Both the position numbers and the translations under genes were made by a program. Shown here piece by piece: positions 23,036 to 39,317 of a DNA stretch of 64,000 nt (its first letter is position 1; each line of letters opens with the position of its first letter). The notes below the pieces were generated by a model, which had not been told where the DNA came from, made no database searches, and worked only from the letters and a program-made list of their open reading frames with translations. The DNA lies in assembly GCA_041671505.1 (NCBI GenBank), contig JBAZBK010000009.1, positions 1-64,000 on the forward strand, read 5' to 3'. The DNA comes from Thermoanaerobaculia bacterium (GTDB lineage: Bacteria > Acidobacteriota > Thermoanaerobaculia > Gp7-AA8).

Positions 23036-25213
23036 ATGCGCACTACCGTCATCGTCGCTCCTGCCGGGCGTGGCGTCGGCATCACCACCGCCTGCCTCGG
23101 CATCGTCCGCGCGCTCGACCGCGAAGGCATCCGCGTCGGCTTTGCAAAGCCGGTCGCAAATCGCGAGCCCGACCACACCATCCCTTTGCTCTCGTTAGGC
23201 GCGCACTTCGCCATTCCGCCCGCGGTACCGCGTGGCGAGGCCGAAGCGCTGCTCGCCGCGGGTGACGACCAGACGCTGATGGAGCGCGTCGTCGCCATCG
23301 CCGACAAGGCGGGCGAGGACGTCGACGTGCTGATCATCCAGGGGATGCACCCCGAGATGGGCATGGTGCACTCCTCGCGCGTGAACGCGCTGATGCTCAA
23401 GGCTCTCGATGCCGATCTCGTGCTCGTCGCCGCGCCGGCCGCCGATCAGACGCCGGCAGAGGTCGCCGAGACGATCGCGATCGCGGCGCGCGGCTACGGC
23501 GCGCTCTCGGACGGGCGCGTGGTGGGCGCCATCCTGAACCGGGTGTGCGAGAAGAAGGGAGACGCGAGCGAGCTCGACGGCGACTCCTTCGGCCCCGGCT
23601 CCGCCGGCTGCTCGGGTTGCGCGGTCCCCGGACTCTCCGCGGAGCGAAAGAAGGAGTTCACGGATGCACTCGACGCCGAGGGACTCCGCGCCATCGCGAT
23701 CGTTCCGTGCAACTCCGATCTCATGGCGATGCGCGTCAAGGACATCGGCGACGCGCTCAATGCGCAGGTTCTCTACCCGGGCGAAGCGCGGACCCGACGC
23801 GTCAAGGATGTGGCCGTATGCGCGATGACCGTCGCGAATGCGCTCCGCGGGTTGAAGCCCGGAACGCTCGTGATCACTCCGGGCGACCGCGCCGACATCC
23901 TCCTGGCGGCCGCGCTCACGGTTCAAAGTGGAACGCCTCTCGCGGGTGTCCTTCTGACGGGAGGGCTCGCTCCCGACCGTCGCATCCTCGACCTCTGCCG
24001 GAAAGTCTTCGACGCAGGGCTCCCGCTCCTCCAGGTGCAGGCCTCGAGCTACCGGGCGGCGACGCAGGTCGCCTCGATGAACTCGACCATCCCGGTCGAC
24101 GACGCCGACCGGGTTGAGCGGACGATGAGCTTCGTCGCCGACCACGTCGATCTCGTCTGGGCGCGAGCCTTCGAGAAGCCGGCGCGCGCACCGCGCCTTT
24201 CGCCGCCGGCGTTCCGGCACCGTCTCGTGGAGACGGCGCGCGCGGACCAGAAGCGCATCGTCCTCCCCGAGGGGGCCGAGCCGCGGACCGTGGTGGCGGC
24301 GTCAATCGTGGCCGCGCGGCGTATCGCGCATTGCGTTCTTCTCGGGAACCCCGAGGAGATTCACGACGTGGCCGGGCGGCAGGGAATCATCCTGCCGCCA
24401 TCGGTGGAGATCATCAACCCGACCGAAGTCGCCCACCGTTACATCGCGCCGCTCGTCGAGCGCCGTGCGTCCAAGGGGATGACCGTCGAGCGCGCGGAGG
24501 TCGAGCTGCAGGACAACATCATGATCGGCACGATGATGATGGTGTTAGGCGAAGCCGACGGCCTCGTGTCGGGTGCGATCCACACGACGGCTCACACGAT
24601 CCGGCCCGCGCTGCAGATCATCAAGACCGTTCCGGGATGCAGCCTCGTCTCGAGCATCTTCTTCATGTGTCTGCCCGACCAGGTGCTCGTCTTCGGCGAC
24701 TGCGCCGTCAACCCTAACCCGACCGCCTCGGAGCTCGCCGACATCGCGATCCAGAGCGCCGACTCCGCGATCGCGTTCGGCGTCCCGCCGCGCATTGCGA
24801 TGCTCTCGTACTCGACCGGCGCAAGCGGAACGGGAGAGGACGTCGACAAGGTCGTCGAGGCGACGCGCATCGCGCGCTCGCTTCGTCCCGAGCTCCTCAT
24901 CGACGGGCCGCTCCAGTACGACGCGGCGATCATGCCCGACGTCGCGCGCCTCAAGGCGCCGAAGTCGGAGGTCGCAGGGAAGGCGACGGTCTTCATCTTC
25001 CCCGACCTCAACAGCGGAAACGTCACCTACAAGGCGGTGCAGCGCTCGGCGAATGTCGTAAGCATCGGCCCGATGCTGCAGGGTCTCGCCAAGCCGGTGA
25101 ACGATCTCTCGCGCGGCTGCCTCGTCGAGGACATCGTCTTCACGATCAACCTCACGGCGATTCAGGCGCAGCAGGTCGCGAGGCTGAAGGCGAATGCGAT
25201 GGTGATGGTCTGA
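23036..25213 (+). CDS. pta: Phosphate acetyltransferase (long form with an N-terminal AAA/DRTGG domain).
   Basis: ATG 23036 lies 24 nt after the ackA stop, and the product is 725 aa. The C-terminal PTA_PTB catalytic domain contains SGAIHTTAHTIRPALQIIKT, DCAVNPNP and GPMLQGLAKPVNDLSRGC. The longer track ORF 22310..25213 is a frame artefact. Confidence 0.9.
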   Translation: MRTTVIVAPAGRGVGITTACLGIVRALDREGIRVGFAKPVANREPDHTIPLLSLGAHFAIPPAVPRGEAEALLAAGDDQTLMERVVAIADKAGEDVDVLIIQGMHPEMGMVHSSRVNALMLKALDADLVLVAAPAADQTPAEVAETIAIAARGYGALSDGRVVGAILNRVCEKKGDASELDGDSFGPGSAGCSGCAVPGLSAERKKEFTDALDAEGLRAIAIVPCNSDLMAMRVKDIGDALNAQVLYPGEARTRRVKDVAVCAMTVANALRGLKPGTLVITPGDRADILLAAALTVQSGTPLAGVLLTGGLAPDRRILDLCRKVFDAGLPLLQVQASSYRAATQVASMNSTIPVDDADRVERTMSFVADHVDLVWARAFEKPARAPRLSPPAFRHRLVETARADQKRIVLPEGAEPRTVVAASIVAARRIAHCVLLGNPEEIHDVAGRQGIILPPSVEIINPTEVAHRYIAPLVERRASKGMTVERAEVELQDNIMIGTMMMVLGEADGLVSGAIHTTAHTIRPALQIIKTVPGCSLVSSIFFMCLPDQVLVFGDCAVNPNPTASELADIAIQSADSAIAFGVPPRIAMLSYSTGASGTGEDVDKVVEATRIARSLRPELLIDGPLQYDAAIMPDVARLKAPKSEVAGKATVFIFPDLNSGNVTYKAVQRSANVVSIGPMLQGLAKPVNDLSRGCLVEDIVFTINLTAIQAQQVARLKANAMVMV

Positions 25214-25464
25214 CCGGGGAGTGAGGCTCCCTGAAAGGCGGAACGGTTCGGAGCGGGGTGACGCGCGCCGGTACCGCTGGGGTCAGGTCTCGAGAGAGTG
25301 GCACGGCGGTACGGATCGAGGCCCGACCATCGGGGTGACCCGGTCAGGTCCACACGCCTAACGACGAGTGACCGGCTCGTGGTAGAGTTGCCCTTTCCGA
25401 CAATTGACCGCGGGCCCGAAATGCCCGATGGCAGGAAGCGGCCGGTTCGCACGGAGGCGCACGA

Positions 25465-25860
25465 ATGATCATCCCGCCGGGATTCAATACGGTGGCTCCC
25501 TACTTCTTCGTTCGTGATGCTGAGCGATTCGTCGCCTTCCTCGTCGACGGGCTTGGCGGCATCGAGACCGTGAGGTCGTTGCGTCCCGACGGGCGGATCG
25601 CGAACGTTCAGGTGAGGTTAGGGACGTCGACCGTGATGGTCAGCGAGGCGTCCGAGCAGTTCCCGGCGATGGCAGCGGCGCACTACCTCTACGTGGAAGA
25701 CGCGGACGCGGCGATGAAGCGCTGCCTCGAGCATGGTGCGACGCTCGAAATGCCCGTCGGCGACATGCCGTACGACGAGCGGCAGGGAGGTGTCCGCGAT
25801 CCGGGAGGGAACATCTGGTGGATCTCGCAACGCCTCGTCGAGGGCCCGTACCTGCCCTGA
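25465..25860 (+). CDS. VOC (glyoxalase/bleomycin-resistance) family protein, PhnB-like.
   Basis: ATG 25465 carries a GGAGG Shine-Dalgarno sequence. The product is 131 aa. Its pattern (FFVRDAERFVAFLVDGLGG...ANVQVRLGTSTVMVSE...HYLYVEDADAAMKRCLEHGATLEMPVGDMPY...GNIWWI) is typical of the PhnB-like VOC fold. Confidence 0.7.
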   Translation: MIIPPGFNTVAPYFFVRDAERFVAFLVDGLGGIETVRSLRPDGRIANVQVRLGTSTVMVSEASEQFPAMAAAHYLYVEDADAAMKRCLEHGATLEMPVGDMPYDERQGGVRDPGGNIWWISQRLVEGPYLP

Positions 25861-25985
25861 CGCGGCACAGCCCCGCCGCTTCACGCCGCCTCGTATCTCG
25901 ATACTATCCAGTCGTCCTGGTCTATGGGAAAGCAAGCAATCGAGCTGCCTGTCGTGCGACGCAGCGGCCGGTGGACCGGGAAGAT

Positions 25986-26219
25986 CTATGGCTTGGGCGC
26001 GGGTGGTGGCAGGTCACGGGCGGGGCAGACCGAATCGAAGCCGGTCTTGTTGTGCGTCCCATCGCAGAACGGTTTGTTCGCGGACTGACCGCAGCGGCAG
26101 AGCGAGACGACAGTCCTCCCGCCGAGACCGAACGGTGTGCCGTCCTGATCCACGATCGTGATGTCGCCCTCGAGGCGGAGCGGTCCGTTGTTCTTCACGA
26201 TGACTTTGAACTCTGACAT
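25986..26219 (-). CDS. CDGSH-type iron-sulfur domain protein.
   Basis: ATG 26219 carries an AAGGAG Shine-Dalgarno sequence 6 nt upstream. The product is 77 aa. The cluster-binding motif is C-R-C-G-Q-S-A-N-K-P-F-C-D-G-T-H. Confidence 0.75.
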   Translation of the reverse strand: MSEFKVIVKNNGPLRLEGDITIVDQDGTPFGLGGRTVVSLCRCGQSANKPFCDGTHNKTGFDSVCPARDLPPPAPKP

Positions 26220-26562
26220 TCGGTCTCCTTCGTACGGCTGAGGCAACGCGATCCCGACTCGCGCGGAATGCGGCCATCTTCTCACACGGACGCGGCTCCG
26301 CTCCGCGGCGAGGAGCGCAGGGTCAGCGGGACGGAGTCAGAGCCTCACTGTTCGCCACTTCCTCCTGACTGAAGATGGGTCGGAATCTACCAGCCGTAGA
26401 GTTCAGCGCGGGGAGGGCCTCCTTCGTCCCACCGTGAGGGAGGGCCAGCGATCGGTCCGGAGAAAACCGAAGCGCTGACCCCGGATTTCATCGAACGCGA
26501 GTGTCCCAGAGTACAGAAGAGTGAAGCTCACGAGCGAAGCTCCGACCACACCTCCCGAGGCG

Positions 26563-28863
26563 TCAGCGGCGGACGGGCCTGCGGCGTGCGGGAGGAAAGC
26601 CAGGGCGGAACGTGTCGATGAGCTGCGCCTGGATGCCCGTTGCTCCGAAGTAGGGCGAGACGTCGATGTTTCGCGCGGCTACCGCGAGCAGTACTCCCGA
26701 GGCACTGACCGCGGATGGAAGGGCGATGCCGTCCATCGTCTGAATCGCACGCTGGCCTCCGTCGGGCGCGAACCGTTGCAGCTCGAGGATGCTGCCGTCG
26801 CCATGGTCCGAAGCGACGAGGTACTCGCCCGATGCTGCCAGGGCCTTCGAAGGCACGCCGGGTTCCGACGCGATCGCGAGCGTCCGGAGCACGTTTGCGG
26901 ACGACTCCTCGATGATGGCCGCGCGGCCTGACGGAAAGGCGGCGAGGTACGTGCCTCCCGCCGCGGCGGCCGACGTCGCGGGAAGTTCGTCGAACGCACG
27001 CATCGGCCCGCGCGCGGCTCCGTTCCGGGTGAGGAGCTGCCCGCGCGCCGCCTCGCTCGAATCGCAGGGCGGGAATCCGCAGTGCGTTAGGCGACTCTCC
27101 GTGAACGCGACGAGGAAGCCGTCGCTCCCGGCGGCGACGACCGGGCTCCAGAACGAGATGGAGTCCTGCCCTTCCTCGCGAGGAGGAGGTGAAACGGGGA
27201 ACGAACTGGTCGTCGTGCCGTCCGCGTTGAGCAGCGTCGCGTGAACGGCGCCCGAAGACCACGCCACGAGCGTCACGCCGTCGCGGCCCGCCAGTGTCGG
27301 CGTGATTCCCTGCGCGAACGTGTCGGTCGCCACCGCCAGGGGTGTGACGTCGACGATCGTCCCGTCGCGCCGCACGCGCCTCGCCACGATCGAGGAGCCC
27401 GCGCCCCAGGCGACGACGTAGTCGATGCCGTTGAACGCGACGGCCGGCCGGCCCAGGTATCGAAAGGCGGAGGTCAGCGTGACCGCGGGTGTGGCGGGTG
27501 TTCCGTCCGCCGCGAGCGTCAAGCAGCGGATCTCCTCTCGGTCGGCGGTCTGCTCGTGCCAGGCGACGAGCCAGCCGTTGCCGTCGCTCGCGGCCACTGG
27601 CCAGGCCTGGTTTGCGGCGGAGATGGAGATCCGGAGGTCGATCGCCGCGAGGTCAGGCCGCGACAGCGACCCGGTCGTCGGCAGCACGACGCCGAGGAGC
27701 TCGTTCATGCCGTAGTCGCCCTGCTGAAAGAACAGGAGATGCCGGTGGCCGGAGCTGCGCAGGGCGAGCGGAATCTCCAGGCCCGGCCGCACGACGACCG
27801 GGACGAATCCGTCGATCGTCGTCGCGCCCGTCGCCGTGAAGCGCGCCGCGTAGACGTCGAGATCGTCCGTGTTGCTGCCCTGCCACTGTCCCGCGGACAT
27901 CACCGCGCTGTACTCGCCGTCCGCCCACTGCGCGTCGATCGAGACGATCGATTTCCATCCATGCGAATCGTGCTGCTGCCACGGCGAGAGGGAGTTGTCG
28001 CGCCCGATGACGACGCTCTTCAATTCCGGCAGCTGACCATAAGCGGACCCTTCCCAGACGATGAGAACGCTGCTGCCGTCCGTGGCTGCAGCCGCGTGTG
28101 TTGGCCTGTAGTCGCCCGCGGTCGTGCCTCGGCTCGCCTCGATCACGACCGGCCCGCCCGAGGCGTCGCCCGAGGGCGAGAATCGACTCAAGGACATGCC
28201 GCTCCACCCGAGAGTGACGACGGCGAAGCTCCCGTCCGCGAGGGTCACGGCGCGGAGGCCAAAGGCGTCGCCTGGGGGGCTCAGGGGCGTCGATCGAACG
28301 ACTCCGCCGGAACGATCGATGACGTGGAGTGCCTCGGCGCCGACCACGTTCCCCAGGGCGAGGGTGACGATGCCGTTCGTCGCGATCGGCGTCGCGTTGA
28401 CGGCCAGAGTCTTCAAGCCGATCGCAATTCCGTTCGCGTCGATCCGGGCAGTGCGCGCGAGCGATGGATAGCCGTTGAGCCACCAGACCTCGAACGACCC
28501 GTCCACGAACTGAACCGTGGGAGCAATCGTTCCTAGCGCATCGCGAAGCACCAGTCGCGCGGGGCCGGTGGGCTGGCCGTCGCGATCGAGCGCGACTCCG
28601 AAGATCGCGTCGAAGCCGACCCTCCACGCGGCGAATCCCCCATCGGGCCCGAACGCGACGGACATCAGCGACGAGATCCCCGCCATCGGCCCCGACGCCG
28701 GCGGCGCGACAGGGCGAACCTCTCCCGCAGAAGCCGGAAACGCGCAGGCGAGCAGCAGAACGACGACGGCTCCGACAGCTCTTTGGAGCCTCGATGCGTT
28801 GCGGAGATGCGCGGGGAAGGGCTGGCGGCTCACGGTCGCACTATAGGGCGAATGCCTGCGCAT
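26563..28863 (-). CDS. Secreted hypothetical protein with repeated D-G-x-x-x-V-A-W-type segments, a possible beta-propeller.
   Basis: ATG 28863 (MRRHSPYSATVSRQPFPAHLRNASRLQRAVGAVVVLLLACAFPASAGE) gives an Arg-rich n-region followed by a signal peptide. GC3 is high throughout. Recurring motifs include ASDGNGWLVAW, ATDGSSVLIVW and VTLVAWSSG. No catalytic motif was recognised. The exact start is uncertain. Confidence 0.55.
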   Translation of the reverse strand: MRRHSPYSATVSRQPFPAHLRNASRLQRAVGAVVVLLLACAFPASAGEVRPVAPPASGPMAGISSLMSVAFGPDGGFAAWRVGFDAIFGVALDRDGQPTGPARLVLRDALGTIAPTVQFVDGSFEVWWLNGYPSLARTARIDANGIAIGLKTLAVNATPIATNGIVTLALGNVVGAEALHVIDRSGGVVRSTPLSPPGDAFGLRAVTLADGSFAVVTLGWSGMSLSRFSPSGDASGGPVVIEASRGTTAGDYRPTHAAAATDGSSVLIVWEGSAYGQLPELKSVVIGRDNSLSPWQQHDSHGWKSIVSIDAQWADGEYSAVMSAGQWQGSNTDDLDVYAARFTATGATTIDGFVPVVVRPGLEIPLALRSSGHRHLLFFQQGDYGMNELLGVVLPTTGSLSRPDLAAIDLRISISAANQAWPVAASDGNGWLVAWHEQTADREEIRCLTLAADGTPATPAVTLTSAFRYLGRPAVAFNGIDYVVAWGAGSSIVARRVRRDGTIVDVTPLAVATDTFAQGITPTLAGRDGVTLVAWSSGAVHATLLNADGTTTSSFPVSPPPREEGQDSISFWSPVVAAGSDGFLVAFTESRLTHCGFPPCDSSEAARGQLLTRNGAARGPMRAFDELPATSAAAAGGTYLAAFPSGRAAIIEESSANVLRTLAIASEPGVPSKALAASGEYLVASDHGDGSILELQRFAPDGGQRAIQTMDGIALPSAVSASGVLLAVAARNIDVSPYFGATGIQAQLIDTFRPGFPPARRRPVRR

Positions 28864-29005
28864 GGGAAACGCGCGAACTCGAATCGGTGTCCGTGAAGAG
28901 ACTCGTGAACTGGCGTGTTGAGAGGCGTGCGTTCCGCGGTTCGCGCCAGGGCGCGACGCAGCTCCCGCGGTGCTAAAATCGCGACCTCGCAACAAGGAGG
29001 TCACC

Positions 29006-30643
29006 ATGAAGCTGGCGAAGCTTTCGTCGGTTCTCTGTCTGTCCATTTCGCTCACGTGCGTTCCAGCTCTCGCGCAGCATGACCACGCCGAAGGTGGAAA
29101 GCCGCCCGAGCGACTCGGCAGCGTGCATTTCGCTACGTCGTGCAGCCCGGCCGTCGAGAAAGATTTCGACCGGTCGGTCGCGCTGCTTCATTCGTTCTGG
29201 TTCTCGGCGGCCGTGAAGTCGTTCGAAGCGGTCGCCGCAAAGGATCCGAAGTGCGCCATGGCGCAGTGGGGAATCGCGATGTGCTGGTGGGGGAACCCGT
29301 TCGGGGGGTTCCGGCCGCAGAAGAGCATCGACGACGGGATGGCCGCCGTCGATAAGGCGAAAACGTTAGGCGCGAAGACCGACCGCGAGCGGGACTACAT
29401 CGCCGCTGTCGAGCTCCTGTACAAGGATGCTGCAACCGTCGACCAGAGAACGAGAACCCTCGCGTACGAGAAGGCGATGGAGAAGGTCGCGGCCAGTTAC
29501 CCCGACGACTCGGAAGCGAGGATCTTCTACGCGCTCTCGCTCGACCAGACCGCGCCCCCGACCGACAAAACCTACGCGAACCTGCTGAAGGCCGCCGCGA
29601 TCCTGGAGAAGGAGTCGGAGACGCAGCCCGATCACCCCGGAATCGCCCACTACATCATTCACAGCTACGACGTGCCTGCGCTCGCCCCTCGGGCGCTCGA
29701 CGCGGCGCGGCGATACGCGAAGATCGCGCCCGACGCCCCGCACGCGCTCCACATGCCGTCCCACACCTTCACCCGCCTCGGCCTCTGGCAGGAATCGATC
29801 GAGACCAATCTCGCCTCCGCGGCCGCGGCTCGAAAGGATGGCGCGCCTGCCGAGGAACTGCACGCATACGACTATCAGACGTACGCGTACCTGCAGACGG
29901 CGCAGGATCAGGCTGCGAAGAAGGTGGTGGAGACGAGCGCGGCGATCGCTTCCCGGATTCAGCTCAACGCGCCGGGCGCTGCGGCGCCGCCGTCCGCGGG
30001 CTGGTACGCAGCGTCCGCCATTCCCGCGCGTTACGCTCTCGAGCGAAACGCGTGGAGCGAGGCCGCGAAGCTCAGCCTGACGCCGTTGGACAGGAAGTTC
30101 GGTTGGATCGAGGCCGTCACGCTCTTCGCCCGGGCGCTCGGTGCCGCGCGCAGCGGTAATCCTGCGGCTGCGTCCGCCGACGTGGAGAAGCTCAGGTCGA
30201 TCACGGCTTCGCTGAACGAGGCGAAGGACGTTTACTGGGCGAGCCAGGTCGAGATCCAGGTGAGGGGCGCGGAGGCGTGGGTCGCGTTCGCCGAAGGTAA
30301 GAAGGACGACGCGCTCGCGAAGATGCGTGAGGCGGCGGCGATGGAGGACCTGACCGAGAAGAGCGCGATCTCTCCCGGACCGCTCAAGCCGGCGCGCGAG
30401 CTTCTGGGCGAGATGCTGCTGCAGATGGGAAAGCCTGCCGAGGCACTGGTGGAGTTCGAGGCGACGATGAAGAAGGAGCCGAACCGGTTCCGTAGCGTCT
30501 ACGGCGCGGCGGTTGCCGCGGAACGTTCGTCGGACGAGGCAAAGGCGAAGGCCTGTTACGCGCAGCTGCTCAAAATCTGTGAACGGGGAGACGGCAAGGG
30601 AAGGCCCGAGCTCGAGGTGGCGCGCAAGGCCGTCGCCAGATGA
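29006..30643 (+). CDS. Periplasmic TPR-like repeat protein of unknown function.
   Basis: ATG 29006 carries an AAGGAGG Shine-Dalgarno sequence. The signal peptide is MKLAKLSSVLCLSISLTCVPALA. The mature protein is alpha-helical and Ala-rich with TPR-like periodicity. A His-rich segment (HPGIAHYIIHSYD...PHALHMPSHTF) could bind a metal. Confidence 0.6.
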   Translation: MKLAKLSSVLCLSISLTCVPALAQHDHAEGGKPPERLGSVHFATSCSPAVEKDFDRSVALLHSFWFSAAVKSFEAVAAKDPKCAMAQWGIAMCWWGNPFGGFRPQKSIDDGMAAVDKAKTLGAKTDRERDYIAAVELLYKDAATVDQRTRTLAYEKAMEKVAASYPDDSEARIFYALSLDQTAPPTDKTYANLLKAAAILEKESETQPDHPGIAHYIIHSYDVPALAPRALDAARRYAKIAPDAPHALHMPSHTFTRLGLWQESIETNLASAAAARKDGAPAEELHAYDYQTYAYLQTAQDQAAKKVVETSAAIASRIQLNAPGAAAPPSAGWYAASAIPARYALERNAWSEAAKLSLTPLDRKFGWIEAVTLFARALGAARSGNPAAASADVEKLRSITASLNEAKDVYWASQVEIQVRGAEAWVAFAEGKKDDALAKMREAAAMEDLTEKSAISPGPLKPARELLGEMLLQMGKPAEALVEFEATMKKEPNRFRSVYGAAVAAERSSDEAKAKACYAQLLKICERGDGKGRPELEVARKAVAR

Positions 30644-30683
30644 TTTGACGGGAGTTCTTGCTGAAAATCAGACTGTCGCCTAA

Positions 30684-30775
30684 CCCCGCAGCGCATCGGC
30701 CGGCTCCATGCGCGAGGCGACGAGGCCAGGGTAGGGGCCTTCCGTTCGGCCGCTGCCGATCGCGTTGCGCCCTCC
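30684..30775 (-). repeat. Diverged copy (about 75-85% identical) of the 3' end of the FtsX permease gene. It is the oldest of three copies.
   Basis: ccccgcagcgcatcggccggctccatgcgcgaggcgacgaggc... aligns to 35810-35900, the true gene 3' end, and to 33047-33140. Translation preserves ...LVASRMEPADALRG plus a stop, but no upstream ORF continues. Confidence 0.5.
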
Positions 30776-30828
30776 GAGGTGCCTCCCGGCCAAACTCCCT
30801 TCCGGGAACGCAGACCGGCCCCTGCACG

Positions 30829-32925
30829 CTACTGCAGGAGATACGGCGCCCCGATCCCGATGTCCCGGTAGATGTTGAACGTCGCCAGGATGAGGTTTGC
30901 AGCCACGCCGAGGAGAGCGAACGACGTGACGAGTCGCGGCGACCGCTCGACGAGCCGCTCCATGCCGGGAGTCGCGGCGAGCAGGAGTCCCGGAAGGGCG
31001 TGCAGGAAGTGCCTGTTCCAGAACGTCGCGGTCGCGATCACGAAGAGCAGGCTCGCCGCCGCCCAGAACGATCCGAGCAGCGGCTCCGTCCGCTCCGACA
31101 TCCGCCTGACACCCGCGACGAGCGGAACGAGAAGCAATTGCAGCAGCACGGCCAGACAGATGATCAACCGTTCGACGGTGCGGCCATCTGCGAAGAAGGT
31201 CATCTTTTCCCGGGCGAGCTCGAACGTCTGCCAGAGACCCGAAGCCCACACCCCTCCGAAGAAGACGAGGAGTGGCAGCGCTCCGAGCGCGACCGCGAGC
31301 GTGGTCGTGCGTCGTGACAGCGTGCCGTCGCGCCACGCGCCTACGATCAATCCGAGCGCGAGCGCGCCGGAGAGCGGGACGACTGTCGGTCTCGAGAAGA
31401 GTCCCACGACGAGAACTCCGCACACGGCGAGCCAGTCGGCGAAAGCCCAGCGCGTCGATCGGCCGAGCCTGCAGCCAAGCCAGAGCCCGAGCACGACGAA
31501 GCAGTATCCGAACACATCGGTGCTGGTTCGGGCCAGGACCTTCACGAAGAGAAAGTGGGTCGTACCCAGCGACCAGAGAAGCCATGCGCCTCGGGATGAC
31601 AGCCAGGGAATCTCCTCGAGAAGCCGGAGCAGCCCTAACGCCGCCACGAGTCCGGCAAGGTAGGCGAGCACGACGTACGCATTGACCGTCGGCACTACGT
31701 GGGACCCGAGTGCCACGAGGAAAGGGACGAGCGGGCTGTGGCTGTGGGCATAGGAACGCATGTCGACGACGAGACCGGATGCCGCGCCGGGCACGCCATC
31801 GAGCACCATCCGAATGCGCTCCGAAAAGATGCCGTAGCCATCCGGCATCCAGTGCGAGGAACCCATGAACGTGTAGTCTCGCTGCCAGTAGGCGGCGGAG
31901 ACGATTGCCAGGAGAGCGACGATGGACGCTGCCAGCAGGTCGCGCCTGCGGCCGCTCGAAGCGGTACCTGCCAGCACCGCGAGCCACGCCACGATCGCCG
32001 ACACGTACGCGGCTTTCCGCCAGGCCGATTCGTAGCGCGAGACGAAGAGGAGTCGGGCGCGGGTGGGATTCCCGTCGACCAGGAGCGATCCGTCACCTTC
32101 GTTATCCGTCGCCGAAGCGAGAATCCGGGATCCGCCTTCGGCCGGCTGCTCGTAGGTCAGCACAACTTCGTGGTCGAGAGCGGGTGACGGTGGAGTGCGG
32201 AAGTGGACGATTTCACCGACGCGGGGGAGGTCACGCGCTGGCCCGCGGAACTCGTACAACGTCTTGCGGGTCGTCCTGTCGCTCAGCGACAGGCTGACGA
32301 TCGCTTTCGAATCCGGCTCGTGAGTAAGGTGAACCGCGAAGCCGTTCAGCACTTCGCCGCTTCCACGGAACGTCTGTTGCACGCGCAGCGGCACGCCCCG
32401 AGCCGCGATGCCGCTGATCCACGCTCCCCCGGACGCGTCAGGGACGAGGATCTTGCGGGCATCGAGCGAGAGGTTTGCGCCCTCGCCTTCGAGCCTGATC
32501 GGACTGTCATCGCGCGACCGCAGTTCCAGAAAGTCGATGCCGAGCGGAGCAACGCTCTCGCGGAGCCTGACGAGATAGGACCGGTTCGCCTCGAGCCTGA
32601 AAGGCGGGCCTGTGGCGACGATCGCGAACCGTTCTCCGACGGCGCGGACCTCGCCTCGAGAGACCACGCGCCCTTCGCTGTCCGTGACGTCGACGACGCC
32701 CGTGGCCTTCGTCCACGCCGTGGAGCGCGCTCGGGCGACCAGTGTGAACTCGCCGGAGCGCGGGAGCGTGCGACTCCAGGTGGCCTCGTAGCCGCTCGAG
32801 GCGAGCTCACTTCCGTCCGAGCTCAAGCCGGGCTCTTGCGGGACAGGGGAGAATGGAATCGTGAGCAGCGGGACCGAGCCAATGATCGCGGCCGCGATCC
32901 AGGGCCACTGCCGCCGGAAGTCCAT
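30829..32925 (-). CDS. Polytopic membrane protein with a roughly 300-aa extracytoplasmic N-terminal domain, possibly a GT-C/ArnT-like or DUF-type transporter.
   Basis: ATG 32925 (MDFRRQWPWIAAAIIGSVPLLTI), or an alternative GTG at 32943. There is one N-terminal transmembrane/signal segment, then a soluble domain, then 10 or more hydrophobic helices (for example LLAASIVALLAIVSAAYW, VVLAYLAGLVAALGLLRLL, WLAVCGVLVVGLFS). Confidence 0.6.
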   Translation of the reverse strand: MDFRRQWPWIAAAIIGSVPLLTIPFSPVPQEPGLSSDGSELASSGYEATWSRTLPRSGEFTLVARARSTAWTKATGVVDVTDSEGRVVSRGEVRAVGERFAIVATGPPFRLEANRSYLVRLRESVAPLGIDFLELRSRDDSPIRLEGEGANLSLDARKILVPDASGGAWISGIAARGVPLRVQQTFRGSGEVLNGFAVHLTHEPDSKAIVSLSLSDRTTRKTLYEFRGPARDLPRVGEIVHFRTPPSPALDHEVVLTYEQPAEGGSRILASATDNEGDGSLLVDGNPTRARLLFVSRYESAWRKAAYVSAIVAWLAVLAGTASSGRRRDLLAASIVALLAIVSAAYWQRDYTFMGSSHWMPDGYGIFSERIRMVLDGVPGAASGLVVDMRSYAHSHSPLVPFLVALGSHVVPTVNAYVVLAYLAGLVAALGLLRLLEEIPWLSSRGAWLLWSLGTTHFLFVKVLARTSTDVFGYCFVVLGLWLGCRLGRSTRWAFADWLAVCGVLVVGLFSRPTVVPLSGALALGLIVGAWRDGTLSRRTTTLAVALGALPLLVFFGGVWASGLWQTFELAREKMTFFADGRTVERLIICLAVLLQLLLVPLVAGVRRMSERTEPLLGSFWAAASLLFVIATATFWNRHFLHALPGLLLAATPGMERLVERSPRLVTSFALLGVAANLILATFNIYRDIGIGAPYLLQ

Positions 32926-33046
32926 ACGCAGCGATGCTACCACGAGGGAAACGCGCCGCAGGGAGGCGGTTCCCTAACAACGCGCTTCCGGGGCCGTGGC
33001 CACAAAGGCGGAGGATGGCCGGTAACGACCCCGGCGTTTCGCCGCA

Positions 33047-33303
33047 CTACCCCCGCAGCGCTTCGACCGGCTCCATGCGCGAGGCGACGAGGCTCGGGTA
33101 GAGTCCCGCCGTCAGGCCGATGGAGATCGCGAAGCTGCCGGCCATGATGATGCCGGGCATCGAGATCGGCAGGCCGCCAGGGAAATTGCTGCCGATCGCG
33201 AGGACCAGGCCGACACCGAGGCCTGCGCCGATGGCGGCGCCGATCGTCGATAGCGTCATCGACTCGATGAGGAACTGGAAGAAGACTTCGCCGTCGCTCG
33301 CGC
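33047..33303 (-). pseudogene. Detached duplicate of the 3' 257 nt of the FtsX permease gene, about 97% identical to 35810..36066.
   Basis: Near-identical nucleotide alignment with the true gene. It encodes MGASDGEVFFQFLIESMTLSTIGAAIGAGLGVGLVLAIGSNFPGGLPISMPGIIMAGSFAISIGLTAGLYPSLVASRMEPVEALRG, the same as the C-terminus of the 35803..37026 product. Homology stops abruptly at gcgcccat (33303). Confidence 0.8.
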
Positions 33304-33306
33304 CCA

Positions 33307-33346
33307 TGGTCACCGGTGGGGTCACGAATGGTCACCGGTGGGGTCA
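33307..33346. repeat. Direct 18-bp repeat tggtcaccggtggggtca, two copies separated by 4 bp, at the truncation point of the ftsX fragment.
   Basis: The two copies lie at 33307-33324 and 33329-33346. They sit immediately between the ftsX-fragment breakpoint and hairpin H1. Confidence 0.7.
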
Positions 33347-33401
33347 GGCCTCGAATTTGTACTTTAGGCAGAGCTAGAGTACAGATTCGAGGCCTGACCC
33401 C
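33340..33401. repeat. AT-rich inverted repeat (hairpin H1) flanked by GGGGTCAGG / CCTGACCCC.
   Basis: The left arm is ggggtcaggcctcgaatttgtactttagg and the right arm is tagagtacagattcgaggcctgacccc. Arms of about 28 bp carry 2 mismatches around a 6-nt loop. The AT-rich core contrasts with the 68% GC background. Confidence 0.7.
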
Positions 33402-33410
33402 GCCCTCCAC

Positions 33411-33480
33411 CGCGATCCAGGCGCAGCAGGTTGCGAGGCTGAAGGCGAATGCGCTGGTCATGGCCTGACCGAGGAGTGAG
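33411..33480 (+). pseudogene. Detached duplicate (about 90% identical) of the last roughly 60 nt of pta, including the stop codon and about 12 nt downstream.
   Basis: gcgatccaggcgcagcaggttgcgaggctgaaggcgaatgcgctggtcatggcctga aligns to 25154-25213. It translates as IQAQQVARLKANALVMA plus a stop, versus pta IQAQQVARLKANAMVMV plus a stop. The downstream ccgaggagtgag matches ccggggagtgag after pta. Confidence 0.7.
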
Positions 33481-33550
33481 TTCTCAGGAGGCAGCGAAGA
33501 GTCGGACAGGCCTACGTTTCGGAGTTTGGGTCACAGTTTCAGTTTTGTTT

Positions 33551-33615
33551 GGGGGTCACAGCTAAAATATAAACTTTAGGCCACGGCCTAAAGTTTATAT
33601 TTTAGCTGTGACCCC
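33551..33615. repeat. Perfect 31-32-bp AT-rich inverted repeat (hairpin H2) with GGGGGTCACAGC / GCTGTGACCCCC ends.
   Basis: The left arm gggggtcacagctaaaatataaactttaggcc and the right arm ggcctaaagtttatattttagctgtgaccccc flank a 2-nt centre. An outer imperfect extension cggagtttgggtcacag ... ctgtgacccccaaactccg spans 33513-33623. Confidence 0.8.
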
Positions 33616-33803
33616 CAAACTCCGCTCGACGCGCAGGAACGACTGCAGTCGCTCCTCACGACACCTGGGGGCAGGGGCGCGCCGCCGTATGCGGCCCGGT
33701 TCGTCAGACTCCCAATCGAGCGGGTGTCTCCCACGCATACGGGAAACCTGTCGCATACATCACACCGGGGCCTGATGAATGACCCCAATCCACTGATCCG
33801 GAC

Positions 33804-35573
33804 CTACCGCCTGATCGCGACCACTCCCACCAGCGACAGCATCAGGCCGAGCACGACCATGCCGCCGATCGACAAGCTCGGGACCTCCAGCGAAGTCACG
33901 ACACTGAACCCGGCGCTGGCGGTATCGTCGTCGGCGCTCGCGTCAGCGACGTTACCAGGCATCGTCACGCTCGCATTGTTGACGACCGGTCCCAACACGC
34001 CTGGAGCCGTGGCCGTCACGGTGTAGGTTGCGCTCCCTCCCGGAAGGAGCGTGACGAGGTCGTCGATGTTGCCGGCTCCTGCCGGTGTGCATGAGGAGCC
34101 CCCTGACGCCGAGCAGGTCCAATTCACGTTCGAGAGACCGGCAGGGAAGACATCGGTGACCGTCGCTCCGTTCACTGCGTCGGTCCCGGAGTTCGTCACG
34201 ACGATCGTGTACTGTACCGGCCCGTTTGGCTCGACGAGTGCGGCACTGCTGCTCTTCTGGATGGCAACATTCACCGAGAGCGGCGCGAGAAGCGCGCCCG
34301 CCGGGTACCCATAGCCCTCGAGGTGCGCGAAGCCGTACACCTGGACGCCAATCGGTGCCGCCGCGGTGACCGTATGGCCACCGCTCGTGACCGGGATCTG
34401 CGCGGCTGAGTACCCGCTTGCCGCAATCGGCGAAAAGCTGGCGCCGGGGACGAGTACGCCATCCACGAAAACCGTACCGGTCGCTGCTGCCGGCGCAACG
34501 ATGTTGAGGTGGCTGGCTGCCCAGCCACCCGTCTCGGCCGAGAATCGATACGACGACTGGAACGCCGTCGTCGGCAACACGGTCATCATTAACGGATCGC
34601 CGATCTGGTCCGGAAGATTGTCGATGTCGTCGTCCGCGGCGAACTGGGTGACGTAGACCGGGTGCGTCGTCACGATGCTAGAGTTTCCTCCGAGCGTCGT
34701 ATCGAAGTGCTCGAGGGCGTTGATTGTCGTGATCAGCGCGCCGTTGATGCGAATCTCCGTGCCGTTCTCGGACGCGAGGATGCGGACGACCTCCGGCGCG
34801 GTGCGCGGCGCGAGCCGCACGGTCAGCACATGCAGCCCCCACGCGCTGGTCGGCAGAATCTGCTCCATCGAGTAGTCGCAGCCCGAGCCATCTGCTGCGG
34901 GGACCTGAGCACACGAGCGGCCGCCGAAGACGGCTACCGGCTTGTCCGAGGCGATCGTCGTGCCGGTCAGGTCGAGGGACGTCTCGCCTGCGACGAGCAG
35001 GTAGCTGGAACCCTGGTCGAGCGACAGGACGTACGGCACCCCCGCCGTCCTCGATCCTCCGTTCGCCGTCGTGGTGACCGTTACCGTCGTGCCGTCCTCC
35101 GTTCCGACGATCGCGAACTGCGAGCCCCCGCCCAGGCCGATATGCCATGAGCTGACGATGTACGAGGTCCCGAGAGCGGCGGTCGGCAGCACAAGGTATC
35201 CGCCCCCGGTTGCAGGCCGGCGATTCCAGCCATGCACGACGACGGGGACATCCGAAGTGACGTGGATGCCGAGGCTCTCGATGACGTCGTTGTTCCAGAG
35301 TTCGGTAGTCACCGGCAGGTCCACCGTGGTCGCTGTACCCGGCACGACGACGAAGTCGATATCGATCGCAAGCGAGCTGTTCGCGATGTTGCCAGCGGCC
35401 GGCGCGGATGAGGAGATCACGAGAGACATCGTCCCGGCCGGAGGAGGTCCCGGCGGAAACCCGACCCAGAAGTCCGTGCCGGAAGTTCCGGCCGCTCCGA
35501 GCGTGGAGGGAACGAGCCCAAAACAAGCAAAGAACACCATTGAGGCCAACGTGGGCCGTCGCACGCTGTACAT
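33804..35573 (-). CDS. Cell-surface protein with an IgGFc-binding-protein N-terminal-type domain, a DUF11 domain and a C-terminal sorting signal (PEP-CTERM-like variant).
   Basis: ATG 35573 carries an AGGAG Shine-Dalgarno sequence. The signal peptide is followed by GTDFWVGFPPG, the hallmark of the IgGFc-binding N-terminal family. The DUF11 unit is PNGPVQYTIVVTNSGTDAVNGATVTDVFPAGLSNVNWTCSASGGSSCTPAGAGNI. The extreme C-terminus is EVPSLSIGGMVVLGLMLSLVGVVAIRR, a short motif plus a transmembrane helix plus a basic tail, as in exosortase substrates. Confidence 0.75.
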   Translation of the reverse strand: MYSVRRPTLASMVFFACFGLVPSTLGAAGTSGTDFWVGFPPGPPPAGTMSLVISSSAPAAGNIANSSLAIDIDFVVVPGTATTVDLPVTTELWNNDVIESLGIHVTSDVPVVVHGWNRRPATGGGYLVLPTAALGTSYIVSSWHIGLGGGSQFAIVGTEDGTTVTVTTTANGGSRTAGVPYVLSLDQGSSYLLVAGETSLDLTGTTIASDKPVAVFGGRSCAQVPAADGSGCDYSMEQILPTSAWGLHVLTVRLAPRTAPEVVRILASENGTEIRINGALITTINALEHFDTTLGGNSSIVTTHPVYVTQFAADDDIDNLPDQIGDPLMMTVLPTTAFQSSYRFSAETGGWAASHLNIVAPAAATGTVFVDGVLVPGASFSPIAASGYSAAQIPVTSGGHTVTAAAPIGVQVYGFAHLEGYGYPAGALLAPLSVNVAIQKSSSAALVEPNGPVQYTIVVTNSGTDAVNGATVTDVFPAGLSNVNWTCSASGGSSCTPAGAGNIDDLVTLLPGGSATYTVTATAPGVLGPVVNNASVTMPGNVADASADDDTASAGFSVVTSLEVPSLSIGGMVVLGLMLSLVGVVAIRR

Positions 35574-35802
35574 GTCATCGACTCCTGAAGCTTCAGATCG
35601 AGGGATCGACGACCAGCAAGCGCCGCCGCGGAAACAGACAGAATCCGCTTAACGACATAAACTCGCAATTCGGGGAAGCGGATGGGTCACTCTACCACGC
35701 GCTGGGGCGCGAGAACGTCGGGATCATCGCCCCACCGTCTGGGCCATGCTCAGCGAAACGTGAGCGGGGTGGACTGGCCGAGAAACCGCCGGCGTTTGAT
35801 TT

Positions 35803-37026
35803 CTATCCCCGCAGTGCCTCGACCGGCTCCATGCGCGAGGCGACGAGGCTCGGGTAGAGTCCCGCCGTCAGGCCGATGGAGATCGCGAAGCTGCCGGCCA
35901 TGATGATGCCGGGCATCGAGATCGGCAGGCCGCCGGGGAAGTTGCTGCCGATCGCGAGGACCAGGCCGACGCCGAGTCCTGCGCCGATGGCCGCGCCGAT
36001 CGTCGACAGCGTCATCGACTCGATGAGGAACTGGAAGAAGACCTCGCCGTCGCTCGCGCCCATCGACTTGCGCAGGCCGATCTCGTAGAGGCGCTCCCCG
36101 ATCGAGATCTTGAGCACGGAGAAGATGCCGACGCCGCCGATGACGAGCGAGACGCCGGCGATCGAGAAGAAGACGATCATCCAATTGCGCAGGATGACGT
36201 CGACTTTCTCTCTCTCCTCGAGAATCTCCTTGCCGATGTTCGTCACCTTGGTGTCTTTGATGCCGTTGTGCGCCCGGTTCATGATGCTCTTCGTCTCGTC
36301 TTCGGCCTCGACCGCGCGCTCGAACTGCGCCGCCTTGACGACCATGTACGAGACCGTGTTGCGCCCATAGATCGTCTCGTAGGTCGACAGAGGAACGTAG
36401 ATGCCGCGCGTCTCGCGCAGCATGTCGTCATCGTTGACGAAGGTCATGTCGAACTTGTGGACGACGCCGATGACTTCGAGCCGCCTGCCGGAGAGGGTGA
36501 TCTGCTCGCCGATCGCGTCGCGCTTGCCGAAGAGCTTTTCCTTCAGCTCCCAGCCGAGAACGCAGACGGGGCGAACCCCTTCCTGGTCGCGCTCGGAGAC
36601 GAACCGCCCGACAGCGGCGTCGCGGTTGCGAACGTAGGCGTATTCGGAGGTGACGCCGTAGACCGACGCCTTACGCAGCTTGCCGCCGGCGGCGATGATG
36701 CCCTCGCCCTCCGCGACAGGCGCAGTCGCGCTCGTCTCGACGGCGCTCTTGAACGCGGCGCGATCCTCCTCGCGCATGCCGCGCGAGAAGTGCACTTTCG
36801 ACTGCTGGATGCGGTCGACCGGCTGCTTGCCCGAGACGTAGAGCACGCCGTCGTAGCCGAGGTCGTTGAAGCCCTTGAGGACGCCGGCGCGCACGCCGTC
36901 GAGCAGCGAGAGGACGACGACGAGCGCGACCGTGCCGAGGATGACGCCCGAGAGCGTCAGCATCGAGCGCAGCTTGTGCGCCCGGATCTCCTCGAGGCTG
37001 GTGCGAACTGACTCTTTGACGTGCAT
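35803..37026 (-). CDS. ABC transporter permease, FtsX/MacB-type (permease 2 of the efflux operon).
   Basis: ATG 37026. The N-terminal transmembrane helix is LRSMLTLSGVILGTVALVVVLSLL. A large periplasmic MacB-like domain is followed by a C-terminal FtsX four-helix bundle ending ...SRMEPVEALRG. Confidence 0.85.
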   Translation of the reverse strand: MHVKESVRTSLEEIRAHKLRSMLTLSGVILGTVALVVVLSLLDGVRAGVLKGFNDLGYDGVLYVSGKQPVDRIQQSKVHFSRGMREEDRAAFKSAVETSATAPVAEGEGIIAAGGKLRKASVYGVTSEYAYVRNRDAAVGRFVSERDQEGVRPVCVLGWELKEKLFGKRDAIGEQITLSGRRLEVIGVVHKFDMTFVNDDDMLRETRGIYVPLSTYETIYGRNTVSYMVVKAAQFERAVEAEDETKSIMNRAHNGIKDTKVTNIGKEILEEREKVDVILRNWMIVFFSIAGVSLVIGGVGIFSVLKISIGERLYEIGLRKSMGASDGEVFFQFLIESMTLSTIGAAIGAGLGVGLVLAIGSNFPGGLPISMPGIIMAGSFAISIGLTAGLYPSLVASRMEPVEALRG

Positions 37027-37045
37027 GGCTCGTTCGTCCTTGTCG

Positions 37046-38275
37046 TTATTCGACGCGAAGCGCTTCGATCGGGTTGAGGCGTGAGGCCTTGAGCGCCGGG
37101 TAGACGCCGAAGACGATTCCGGTGCCGGCCGCGAAGACGAGCGCCTTCAAGATGACTTCGGGGGTGATGATCGCGGGCTCGTTGGTCAGCATGCTGATGC
37201 CGGTCGTGAATGCCCGTCCGAGGAAGATACCGATGATTCCCCCGAGCGCGGAGACGAGCACCGCCTCGGCCATGAACTGACCGAAGACGTGGAGGCCGCT
37301 CGCGCCGATCGCCTTGCGGATGCCGACCTCGCGGATCCGCTCGTTGAACGACGCCATCTGGATGTTCATGACGACGATGCCGCCGACGAAGAGCGAGATG
37401 ATGCCGCACACCATGAAGGTGATGTCGTACATCTTCCCCTGCTCCTCGTTCTGCTTGAGCCGTTCGACGCGCGAGATGACTTCGAAGTCGGTCACGCCGT
37501 GTTCGCGCTTGAGGATCTCTTCGACTTCCTGGACGGCTTCCTTCGCACGTTTGGTGTCTTTCATTCGAACGTGCATGAAGGCGACGCGACCGGTCTTCAG
37601 CGATTCGCCGCGGCGCGTCATGATGGTCGTGACGGGAACGAAGATCTGGCGGTTCATCCATCGGAGCGCATTTCGGCCGCTGCCGAAGGCGAAGAACTTG
37701 TGCTCCATCACCCCGACGACGACGTAGCCGGTTCCGTTGATCGTCACGGTCTTGCCGATCGGGTCGTCGCTGCCGAAGAGCTCGTTGGCCCGGTCGGTGC
37801 CGATGACGACGACGCGTGTCGCCCCCTGGATGTCGCTGTCGGTGATGAAGCGGCCGCGCTCGATTTTGAAGTCGTTCATCGGGCTGAAGGCCGGGACGAC
37901 GCCGGAGATCTCCCGCGTCTTCTCGCGATCGCCAAAGCGGAGGACCGCCTGCTCGCTGATGACGGGCGAGACGAGGTCGATCTCCTTCGCCTGGCTCCTG
38001 ATCGCCATCGCGTCGCCGAAGGTGAGTCCCTTCGATGCCGCAGCGCGCGCCGAGTCGGTCACTTTGCCCGACTGCTTGTTCCAGATGAAGATTTTCGCGA
38101 TGCCGCCGCTCATCCGGTAGAAACGCTGCGACTGCTCGCGGCCCGCCGAGGCGAGGGCGAATGTCGCCACGATCGACGCGACCCCGAGGATCACGCCGAC
38201 GAGCTGCAGCATCGTGCGACCCATGTGGGTGCGGATGTCGGCGATGCCGTCGAGGATCGATTCGAGCAGGATCAT
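37046..38275 (-). CDS. ABC transporter permease, FtsX/MacB-type (permease 1).
   Basis: ATG 38275 overlaps the ATPase stop (ATGA). The N-terminus is [42 protein letters not shown], and the FtsX C-terminus ends ...[14 protein letters not shown]. The track ORF 37046..38803 has a spurious Arg-rich extension. Confidence 0.85.
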
Positions 38276-39039
38276 GCCACTGCCTCTCCCGGAAGCGCGT
38301 CGACGATCTCGCCGTCGACGATGCGGATTCTGCGGTGCGTGCGCGCGGCGATCGCCGGGTCGTGCGTGACGATGACGATCGTCTCGCCCTTGGCGGCGAG
38401 CGTCTCGAAGATGTCGATGATCTCGGTGCCGGTCTTCGAGTCGAGGTTGCCCGTCGGCTCGTCGGCCAGGATCAGCGAGGGGTTGTTCACGAGCGCGCGG
38501 GCGACGGCGACGCGCTGGCGCTGGCCGCCGGAGAGCTCCGCCGGACGGTGCTTCGCGCGGTTGCCGATGCCGACCAGCTCGAGCGCCTGGCGCGCCCGCT
38601 CGGTCCGCTCGTCGGAGTCGACGCCGGCGTAGAGCAGCGGCAGCTCGACATTCTTGAGGATCGACGCGCGAGGCAGCAGGTTGAAGGTCTGGAAGACGAA
38701 GCCGATCTTCTGGTTGCGGATCTTCGCGAGCCCGCCGCCGCCGATCGCGGCGACGTCCTGGCCGTCGAGCCAATAGCTTCCTTCGGTCGGCGAGTCGAGG
38801 CATCCGAGGATGTGCATGAGCGTCGACTTGCCCGATCCCGAAGGACCGATGATCGACACGAACTCGCCTTTGCTGATCTCGGCGTTGATTCCGCGCAGAG
38901 CTTCCACGGCGTTCTCGCCCGAGTCGTACGTCTTGCGGATCCCGTGGAGCTCGATCAGCGCGCGCTCGGGTACGGCATGGAGGCTCGGCTTTTCGACCTT
39001 CCGGCTCACCGCGAGATTCAAGATGCTCAGGATGCTCAT
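38272..39039 (-). CDS. ABC transporter ATP-binding protein (MacB/LolD-type).
   Basis: ATG 39039. Walker A is GPSGSGKST, the ABC signature is [15 protein letters not shown], Walker B is [12 protein letters not shown], and the H-loop is VTHD. Confidence 0.9.
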
Positions 39040-39137
39040 GATTGTGCCCTCAGGAATTGATTTACGGAGTTCGTACCGCAGGGTTGCGCCTCTCCGCGGG
39101 ATTCTTCAATGGACGGGCCGGCGCGTAGCGCCGGAGG

Positions 39138-39277: not shown

Positions 39278-39317
39278 CGTCACCGCTTCGCGGTGAGTCC
39301 AGCTCGTGCACGCCCCA

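Follow-up and report, generated by a model that had tools for sequence, protein, structure and literature searches.

Three ends of one permease gene

We analysed a 64,000-nucleotide (nt) stretch of DNA from a Thermoanaerobaculia bacterium (GenBank assembly GCA_041671505.1, contig JBAZBK010000009.1, positions 1 to 64,000; hereafter the window), in which the 3' end of a MacB/FtsX-type permease gene, perm2, is present three times. perm2 (35803-37026, minus strand) is intact, encodes a permease of 407 amino acids (aa) with Pfam matches to MacB_PCD and FtsX, and is the last gene of a minus-strand operon that also comprises genes for an HlyD-type adaptor (39387-40631), an ABC ATPase (38272-39039) and another MacB_PCD + FtsX permease, perm1 (stop codon at 37046). 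An exact look-up of the perm2 protein returned no record. All copies of its gene end have the same orientation and begin at the stop codon. Copy 3 (35803-36063, minus strand) is the living end of perm2 and consists of its last 86 codons and stop codon, copy 2 (33047-33307, minus strand; 261 nt) is an orphaned end whose translation matches FtsX in Pfam, and copy 1 (30680-30764, minus strand; 85 nt) starts at the reverse-complemented stop codon CTA and keeps the reading frame and the terminal residues ...ALRG*. Copies 2 and 3 were 96.2% identical (10 differences in 261 nt), and copy 1 was 83.5% identical to copy 2 and 82.4% identical to copy 3. The local alignment score of copy 1 (47.5) lay far above those of 500 dinucleotide shuffles (mean 10.0, sd 1.1, maximum 16), and a 23-mer common to all three copies occurred at no other site in the window and never in shuffles. 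A first-pass annotation of the same DNA had proposed three direct copies of an FtsX gene end, with identities of about 80%, 97% and 100%; the copies are real, copy 1 is significant by the shuffle comparison, and the proposed identities are close to the measured values (82-84%, 96.2% and the gene's own end). It had placed copy 1 at 30684-30775, which was right as to location and needed correction at the exact ends.

The copies bracket two segments of one gene each, with the content that the first-pass annotation had given them, namely a membrane protein gene in one and a DUF11 gene with two hairpins (H1 and H2) in the other. Read in the direction of the gene, perm2 and copy 3 are followed by a 229-nt spacer (35574-35802, minus strand; similar over its first ~25 nt to what follows copy 2, AAACGCCGG), a gene for a 589-aa IgGFc_binding + DUF11 surface protein (33804-35573, minus strand), H2 (33547-33620), a fragment of pta (33408-33480, plus strand), H1 (33337-33404), two 17-mers (GGTCACCGGTGGGGTCA twice, 22 nt apart; 33308-33346, plus strand) and copy 2, whose 5' break the 17-mers directly adjoin. 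After copy 2 come a spacer of ~100 nt, a GT39-like membrane protein gene (30829-32943, minus strand; a 704-aa open reading frame (ORF) annotated as 698 aa, 30829-32925), a 64-nt segment without significant fold between the stop codon of that gene and the 5' break of copy 1 (30765-30828, minus strand), copy 1 itself, a 36-nt spacer (30644-30679) and the stop codon of a convergent TPR gene (28970-30643, plus strand).

The nearest homologues of the IgGFc/DUF11 protein were 45-49% identical and lay in unrelated contexts (one is named IPTL-CTERM protein by NCBI). A family search of the GT39-like protein gave no match, and a 75%-identical homologue is named GT39-family glycosyltransferase by NCBI. 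H2 is a perfect AT-rich palindrome of 36 + 36 nt with a 2-nt loop (DNA fold -40.7 kcal/mol, z = -15.6), and H1 is a related, imperfect palindrome of 31 + 31 nt (fold z = -7.8). The pta fragment is 73 nt long, truncated at its 5' side, and holds the last 20 codons, the stop codon and 12 nt beyond; it was 90% identical to the true pta end at 25153-25225, with six coding differences (four synonymous, M>L and V>A) and one non-coding difference, and has the appearance of an allele from a different strain that arrived with the younger of the two insertions proposed below. Behind the true pta gene lies an H1-like sequence (~25273-25330) that shares sequence with H1 and has no significant fold. The motif GGGGTCA was clustered, 5 of its 13 copies in the window falling in a span of 350 nt at the 5' break of copy 2, hereafter the younger junction (33308-33620, 33780); its sites include the H1 and H2 stems as well as the duplicated 17-mer, and it is also recorded for the region of the H1-like sequence (25273-25340). 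The 17-mer pair may be filler of the younger junction. Known RNA families gave only two sub-threshold, chance-level matches across 24-41 kb.

Alleles, relatives and the unoccupied site

All 10 differences between copies 2 and 3 fall on third codon positions and are synonymous (G/A, G/C, A/C and C/T), leaving 86 of 86 residues identical. Random substitutions in the repeat would be silent in 27% of cases, giving P = 1.8e-6 for 10 silent differences out of 10. When the sites were polarised with four outgroup sequences (and with the L005 contig described below, where it overlaps), about five changes fell on each lineage; those of the copy-2 lineage alone were silent in five of five cases (P = 1.3e-3), and copy 3 carries derived synonymous states at gene positions 86, 245, 248 and 257. 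Because every difference is synonymous and the changes are spread over both lineages, we interpret copy 2 as having belonged to a functional gene through almost the entire period after its split from copy 3 and as having become a fragment only recently. An allele of this kind excludes duplication in place followed by decay. Copy 2 would then have served as the gene end until the younger insertion, and copy 3 would be the end that the most recent insertion brought. By the same reasoning, the 4% divergence would be the distance between two alleles and not the age of an insertion, so that dating the copies by divergence, as the first-pass annotation had envisaged, fails here: repeat identity is unusable as a clock because the youngest pair differs only by silent allelic divergence predating the event. 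The locus thus gives a warning that repeat identity does not equal time since insertion. A crossover point inside the 261-nt repeat was considered and set aside, the last three sites (all derived in copy 3) being suggestive and the 10 available sites not giving significance by a rough, uncomputed estimate. Nor did a comparison of perm2 with its counterpart in a close relative reveal a clear recombination tract, identity varying between 84% and 98% in line with constraint.

Copy 1 has a different character. Its differences hit all codon positions (3, 7 and 7), and its translation places R, E and P in a former membrane helix. It was closer to the perm2 allele of the relative L009 (87%) than to the window's own perm2 end (82%), and its GGC codon state is common to L009, L003 and L010; this state is taken to be ancestral, as expected for an older resident end. 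In another relative, L014, the perm2 end is followed by a 37-nt spacer and then by the 3' end of the convergent TPR gene, an unoccupied site. Positions 1001-1356 of L014 align with window positions 30763-30409 at 80% identity across 356 nt (E = 1e-88), a range that covers copy 1, the spacer and the tail of the TPR gene. The spacers alone (36 nt in the window and 37 nt in L014) scored 9, against -11.9 +/- 3.5 in shuffles, none of 2000 reaching that score. Because the empty site aligns with this whole unit, copy 1 is read as the original perm2 end and not as an extra copy, still in its ancestral position, decayed and severed from the gene body by later insertions. The uninterrupted arrangement in L014 thus supports the first-pass proposal of successive insertions at one site, with the oldest copy furthest from the gene. 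The decay of copy 1 was uneven, with 3-4 differences in the terminal 47 nt and 11 in the inner 38 nt, a marginal effect (p = 0.02-0.04) for which no explanatory RNA structure or terminator was found.

The TPR gene forms the conserved far flank. It encodes 545 aa on an independent contig of the locus, L008 (equivalent to 29006-30643), and has homologues in L009 (89%) and L014; no trace of the ancestral spacer was found in L009. Beyond the TPR gene lies a large ORF without family match (26563-29055, minus strand), of 830 aa in the window and 766 aa on L008, and in L009 its 773-aa homologue (9735-12056) is placed within the perm2-TPR interval. The methyltransferase gene of window positions 20436-21407 has an inverted relative orientation in L003. 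Judging from the position of the large ORF and the orientation of the methyltransferase gene, the region appears to have been rearranged repeatedly.

The block showing synteny with relatives ends at the perm2 stop codon. Homology to L002, L003, L009, L010 and L014 stops within ~10 nt of it (35803-35813); upstream the block is syntenic (L009, L010), and downstream the content differs in every genome. L009, whose perm2 is 98% identical in protein and ~91% in DNA, conserves both the upstream block and the convergent TPR gene, and its perm2-TPR interval holds a beta-lactamase-family gene, the 773-aa ORF and a gene for peptidase M3, and is free of permease fragments. perm2 is followed by Calx-beta and other genes in L010, by a patatin gene in L003, and by an unassigned stretch and then a rhomboid gene in L002. 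Neither of the two cargo genes was present in the perm2-TPR interval of any related contig that reaches past the perm2 stop codon. The first-pass annotation had suggested looking for the cargo elsewhere in relatives, which proved informative for one gene: the GT39-like gene sits at a different locus in two relatives, beside a pyruvyl-transferase gene and with no permease fragment on either side (the L006 cluster also holds a 2OG-Fe(II) oxygenase gene and ackA), and the IgGFc/DUF11 gene gave only homologues of up to 49% identity in unrelated contexts. The L006 and L007 copies of the GT39-like gene have just 3' of them (5311-5347 and 3044-3086, respectively) a hairpin resembling repetitive extragenic palindromic (REP) sequences (GGCGCAGGCACTCCTGCCTGCGC), of which the window carries an inverted pair in an intergenic region (53939-53975 and 54038-54060). 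In the syntenic block itself, relatives annotate perm1 with 409-410 aa; the automatic 585-aa ORF of perm1 in the window (37046-38803) overruns 5' into the ATPase gene, and the true start is probably near 38278.

A metagenome scan with perm2 yielded one short contig only, L005, which belongs to another lineage and has a like architecture: a perm2 end (82% identical to the L014 end), a cargo gene between two copies of a hairpin, and a 5'-truncated downstream remnant. This remnant, 95% identical to L014, is a perm1 fragment fused to perm2 from codon 162; its deletion junction shows AAGG microhomology, and its break is at a third position, inside perm1. A GGCGCAGGCACTCCTGCCTGCGC-type hairpin follows directly after the perm2 end of L005 (164-218). 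In L014, perm2 itself (164-1084, protein P0009) has an in-frame deletion of ~101 codons (SGK/RDAIGE), and the different perm1/perm2 deletion in L005 (1965-2385) ends within ~10 nt of the place of the L014 deletion. The two deletions could reflect a deletion hotspot, operon decay or a mixture of strains.

Compositional evidence for foreign cargo, which the first-pass annotation had proposed to examine, was sought and rejected. GC content is flat across the cargo at ~0.65-0.69. GC content at third codon positions (GC3) is 0.81 in the cargo, lower than in the operon (0.91-0.92 in the genes scored) but equal to that of the whole left flank, which includes the housekeeping genes pta and ApbE, so the cargo is not marked. 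The step as such lies at the perm2 stop codon, with GC3 of ~0.78-0.87 in genes to its left (1836-35573) and ~0.88-0.96 in most genes to its right (35803-52900).

Origin of the displaced gene ends

Taken together, the arrangement of the copies, the allele-like state of copy 2 and the unoccupied site point to two ordered insertions, each of which supplied a replacement gene end and orphaned the previous one; we consider this history probable. In the ancestral state, the stop codons of perm2 and of the convergent TPR gene would have been 36 nt apart. In a first event (A), an incoming perm2 3' end with a spacer of ~100 nt and the GT39-like gene would have replaced the resident gene body as far as position -85 from the stop, leaving the last 85 nt of the resident gene (copy 1) orphaned beside the TPR gene. 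Much later (event B), DNA of a ~4% diverged strain, carrying a perm2 end (copy 3), the IgGFc/DUF11 gene, H2, the piece of the pta end and H1, would have joined the resident gene at -261 and orphaned copy 2. On this account perm2 would stay intact each time because the incoming DNA brings a complete end, and the repeats would be leftovers of the process and not recombination sites. The order of events and the identity of the incoming copy are what we infer from sequence comparison.

As for the recombination pathway, we slightly favour one in which the near side of each insertion would have been anchored by homologous recombination within perm2 or the operon, and the far side closed by an illegitimate join within the 3' region of the resident gene, as in homology-facilitated illegitimate recombination (HFIR), or its equivalent, a single homologous crossover with a circular molecule bearing a truncated perm2 end. 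The locus has several features of the HFIR type: a conserved upstream anchor with variable downstream content, orphan ends of the same orientation that differ in truncation with the oldest most distal, and a replacement end from a diverged functional allele (10 of 10 differences synonymous, on both lineages). Visible microhomology comprises only AT / G.C.ATG at -261 and the AAGG of the L005 perm1/perm2 junction; at the window junctions it cannot be scored because no donor was found.

Several points weigh against this account. We found no donor arrangement for either event, whether perm2 with IgGFc/DUF11, H2 and pta or perm2 with the GT39-like gene. H1 and H2, the duplicated 17-mer and the GGGGTCA cluster lie exactly at the younger junction, and simple HFIR does not explain them; this patchwork could be junction filler, remnants of donor terminators, or sites bound by a recombination system whose genes lie elsewhere. 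Both L005 and L014 are short contigs from metagenomes, so their architectures are supportive evidence, not strong evidence, and the junction between copy 2 and H1 is present in one assembly only. To our knowledge, nothing is known of DNA uptake in Thermoanaerobaculia. HFIR itself is rare, and experimental demonstrations of it are limited to a few competent species and to conjugation in E. coli (PMC3240628, PMC5361080).

The first-pass annotation had instead likened the array to tandem islands at a gene 3' end, with att-like repeats and no integrase. Such a history would require two different site-specific elements that inserted at the perm2 3' region, each with a replacement end, and later lost their integrase and most genes. 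The geometry fits, inasmuch as direct repeats derived from the 3' end of the target gene bound each inserted segment, each displaced copy matches the gene from some interior position through to its stop codon, and the protein is unchanged by the replacement end. The 17-mer pair, the hairpins and the GGGGTCA cluster, all adjacent to copy 2 at its 5' edge, might represent arm-type binding sites, and decayed tandem elements that keep their att sites, the cis-mobilizable elements (CIMEs), are well known (PMC5704250). The unoccupied site in L014 fits islands as well as HFIR and does not discriminate between the two. The absence of an integrase was borne out: no integrase, excisionase, transposase or recombinase was found in the 50 ORFs of the window scanned against Pfam (the 817-aa ORF at 4317-6770 was not scanned), and the window holds no tRNA or tmRNA target. 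When an integrase inserts DNA that brings a replacement gene end, the displaced copy has the crossover core at its 5' edge. In the window these edges lie at -85 (copy 1) and -261 (copy 2), so no core is shared, and two unrelated specificities would be needed in place of accretion at one att site; the L005 junction lies at a third position. Each would-be island, moreover, is a single ordinary gene of ~2.1-2.8 kb, cargo genes occur elsewhere in relatives without flanking repeats, and neither the cargo against phages and plasmids nor the hairpin pattern against viral contigs gave a match. The att-like reading of the repeats and the island mechanism are thus unsupported, and we regard an origin from integrase islands as unlikely.

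Extra full copies of perm2 or of the operon could alternatively have resided downstream and been truncated by local deletion or rearrangement, with no foreign DNA involved. Divergence at synonymous sites only would also follow if both paralogues had been functional until a recent deletion, perm1 and perm2 are already tandem paralogues, and L005 and L014 show deletions within permease genes. No relative had a second perm2 copy, however (L009, L010, L002, L003 and L014 have one each), copy 1 lies exactly where the single ancestral gene ended, hence is the original end, and the absence of the cargo from the interval in relatives, together with the other home locus of the GT39-like gene, indicates that DNA was gained here and not merely lost. 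We hold this origin to be distinctly unlikely.

Very unlikely, in our estimation, is that the H hairpins are the ends of a small mobile element (a miniature inverted-repeat transposable element, a REP-like element or a transposon footprint) that travelled together with adjacent gene 3' ends and produced the joins. H1 is directly next to both the perm2 fragment (copy 2) and the pta fragment, an H1-like sequence lies behind the true pta gene, GGGGTCA is strongly clustered, and the L005 cargo gene lies between two copies of another hairpin. Against this, members of the H family occur just three times in the 64 kb and are absent from the fetched relatives. There is no visible target-site duplication, and the window yielded no transposase. 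The older junction, at copy 1, lacks a hairpin and so goes unexplained, and a hairpin element does not account for a complete in-frame replacement end in each insertion.

We give no more credence to the possibility that the 2756-bp unit formed by the copy-3-type perm2 end, the IgGFc/DUF11 gene, H2, the pta fragment, H1 and the 17-mers is a small integrase-free mobile cassette that cycles between circle and chromosome via its built-in conserved gene end, with the GGGGTCA-rich hairpins as sites for a host or trans-acting factor. Were it true, serial capture behind a core operon would be a general, integron-like route of gene gain in Thermoanaerobaculia.

Lastly, we asked whether the assembly could have created the array. 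Two Logan contigs of SRR18595301 were 100% identical to the window, L008 over 24984-33092 and L001 over 33591-35848; these contigs bear out copy 1 and the sequence on either side of it, as well as the flank of copy 2 that faces the GT39-like gene and that of copy 3 that faces the IgGFc/DUF11 gene, and each stops 46 nt into a repeat copy, a length that would correspond to the last variant site plus a 31-mer. A chimeric metagenome-graph path mixing co-occurring strains is conceivable in a contig of a metagenome-assembled genome: a stretch of 116 nt, which exceeds typical k-mers, is identical in copies 2 and 3, the independent contigs break exactly there, and, if the two sides had been paired wrongly, the array would resolve into a chromosome lacking event B and a circle of 2756 bp. 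Such a path is nevertheless highly improbable, given that L008 independently holds copy 1, both its flanks, the GT39-side flank and the first 46 nt of copy 2 at 100% identity, that copy 1 is decayed and hence not the end of a live gene in another strain, and that the junctions of copy 2 with the 17-mer, of H1 with the pta fragment and of the 64-nt segment with copy 1 would share no k-mer with confusable sequences. The copy 2/H1 junction likewise appears to lack a k-mer overlap that the graph could have mis-joined.

Three further classes of element were rejected. A diversity-generating retroelement does not suit differences that are silent and not confined to adenines, and no reverse transcriptase was present in the scanned ORFs. 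For an integron cassette array or a cluster of attC sites lacking an integrase, the perfect palindrome of H2, the restriction of H1 and H2 to one side of one cargo gene and the lack of IntI speak against it (by inspection only, without an attC model). The locus is also not itself an rhs, contact-dependent inhibition or type VI secretion system (T6SS) polymorphic toxin system, the displaced ends encoding the same FtsX C-terminus and the cargo a surface protein and a membrane protein.

Comparison with known systems and other repeats

The closest likeness to the proposed serial insertion is with the orphan arrays of rhs loci and of T6SS clusters in V. cholerae. HFIR has been put forward as a possible mechanism for the latter in PMC5361080, where it is noted, with citation of Jackson et al. 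2009 for rhs, that the strings of orphaned 3' regions in rhs loci had been explained hypothetically in this way too. As described there, such arrays have a conserved upstream anchor at which incoming DNA gives a new 3' end and one or more downstream genes, the old ends are pushed downstream in the same orientation with variable 5' truncation and the oldest furthest away, and no integrase is involved. In the toxin loci so described, however, what is displaced is a polymorphic toxin domain paired with its cognate immunity gene, and the gene acquires a different function as a result. At the present locus the old and new ends do not differ in what they encode (86 of 86 residues in copies 2 and 3), each cargo is a single unrelated gene, and insertion took place at an ordinary ABC permease gene; the duplication seems to be a by-product without a function of its own. 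The signature of orphaned 3' ends known from toxin loci can thus arise at an ordinary transporter gene, with displaced ends that have no function of their own.

Integrative elements that bring a replacement gene end, such as prophage e14 in icd, offer a second comparison. Tandem accretion of integrative and conjugative elements, integrative and mobilizable elements and CIMEs at gene 3' ends is treated in sections of PMC5704250, which cite Pavlovic et al. 2004 and Bellanger et al. 2011. The features set out in those sections are shared in part: the flanking direct repeats come from the 3' end of the target, the gene is rebuilt by an element-borne end that differs mainly silently, and tandem arrays with internal repeat copies and decayed members without integrase occur. 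At perm2, by contrast, no recombinase was found among the scanned ORFs, the repeat copies lack a common 5' boundary or core, and the segments are single genes of ~2-3 kb that carry no mobility, regulation or replication functions and were not seen elsewhere bounded by the same repeats.

Experimentally, HFIR has been shown for E. coli conjugation, and the account of earlier work in the same paper describes it for three naturally competent species (PMC3240628). Its products resemble the present locus in having one homologous anchor and one illegitimate end, foreign DNA beside the anchor, and an illegitimate join that varies in position. Typical products replace or delete recipient DNA next to the anchor, whereas here the illegitimate join would lie inside the recipient's own copy of the anchor, part of which is kept as a duplicate.

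The locus can be regarded as a natural record of accessory-gene addition at a conserved operon boundary in an uncultured acidobacterial lineage, one that includes the empty site, two ordered events and fossil gene ends; the record is clear but fairly ordinary, and the process is of a known kind. For annotation, 33047-33307 and 30680-30764 are to be treated as pseudogene relics and not as small FtsX-like genes.

Other repeats were noted in the window. Within the conserved block, several intergenic regions carry inverted pairs of a GAATG/CATTC-rich family (41462-41570, 44959-45091, 46038-46164 and 47120-47246), which was also found after the perm2 stop codon in L002, L003 and L010. A two-part intergenic repeat, 85% identical between its two loci, lies at 39119-39170 / 39256-39296 and at 53167-53218 / 53314-53354, and one of its copies gave a sub-threshold match to the Acido-Lenti-1 RNA (24.2 bits against a gathering score of 37, E = 0.07). 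At the far left of the window, 6857-13651 encodes a 2264-aa protein with subtilase, many FG-GAP, DUF11 and fn3 domains, and the gene contains 147-nt periodic repeats.

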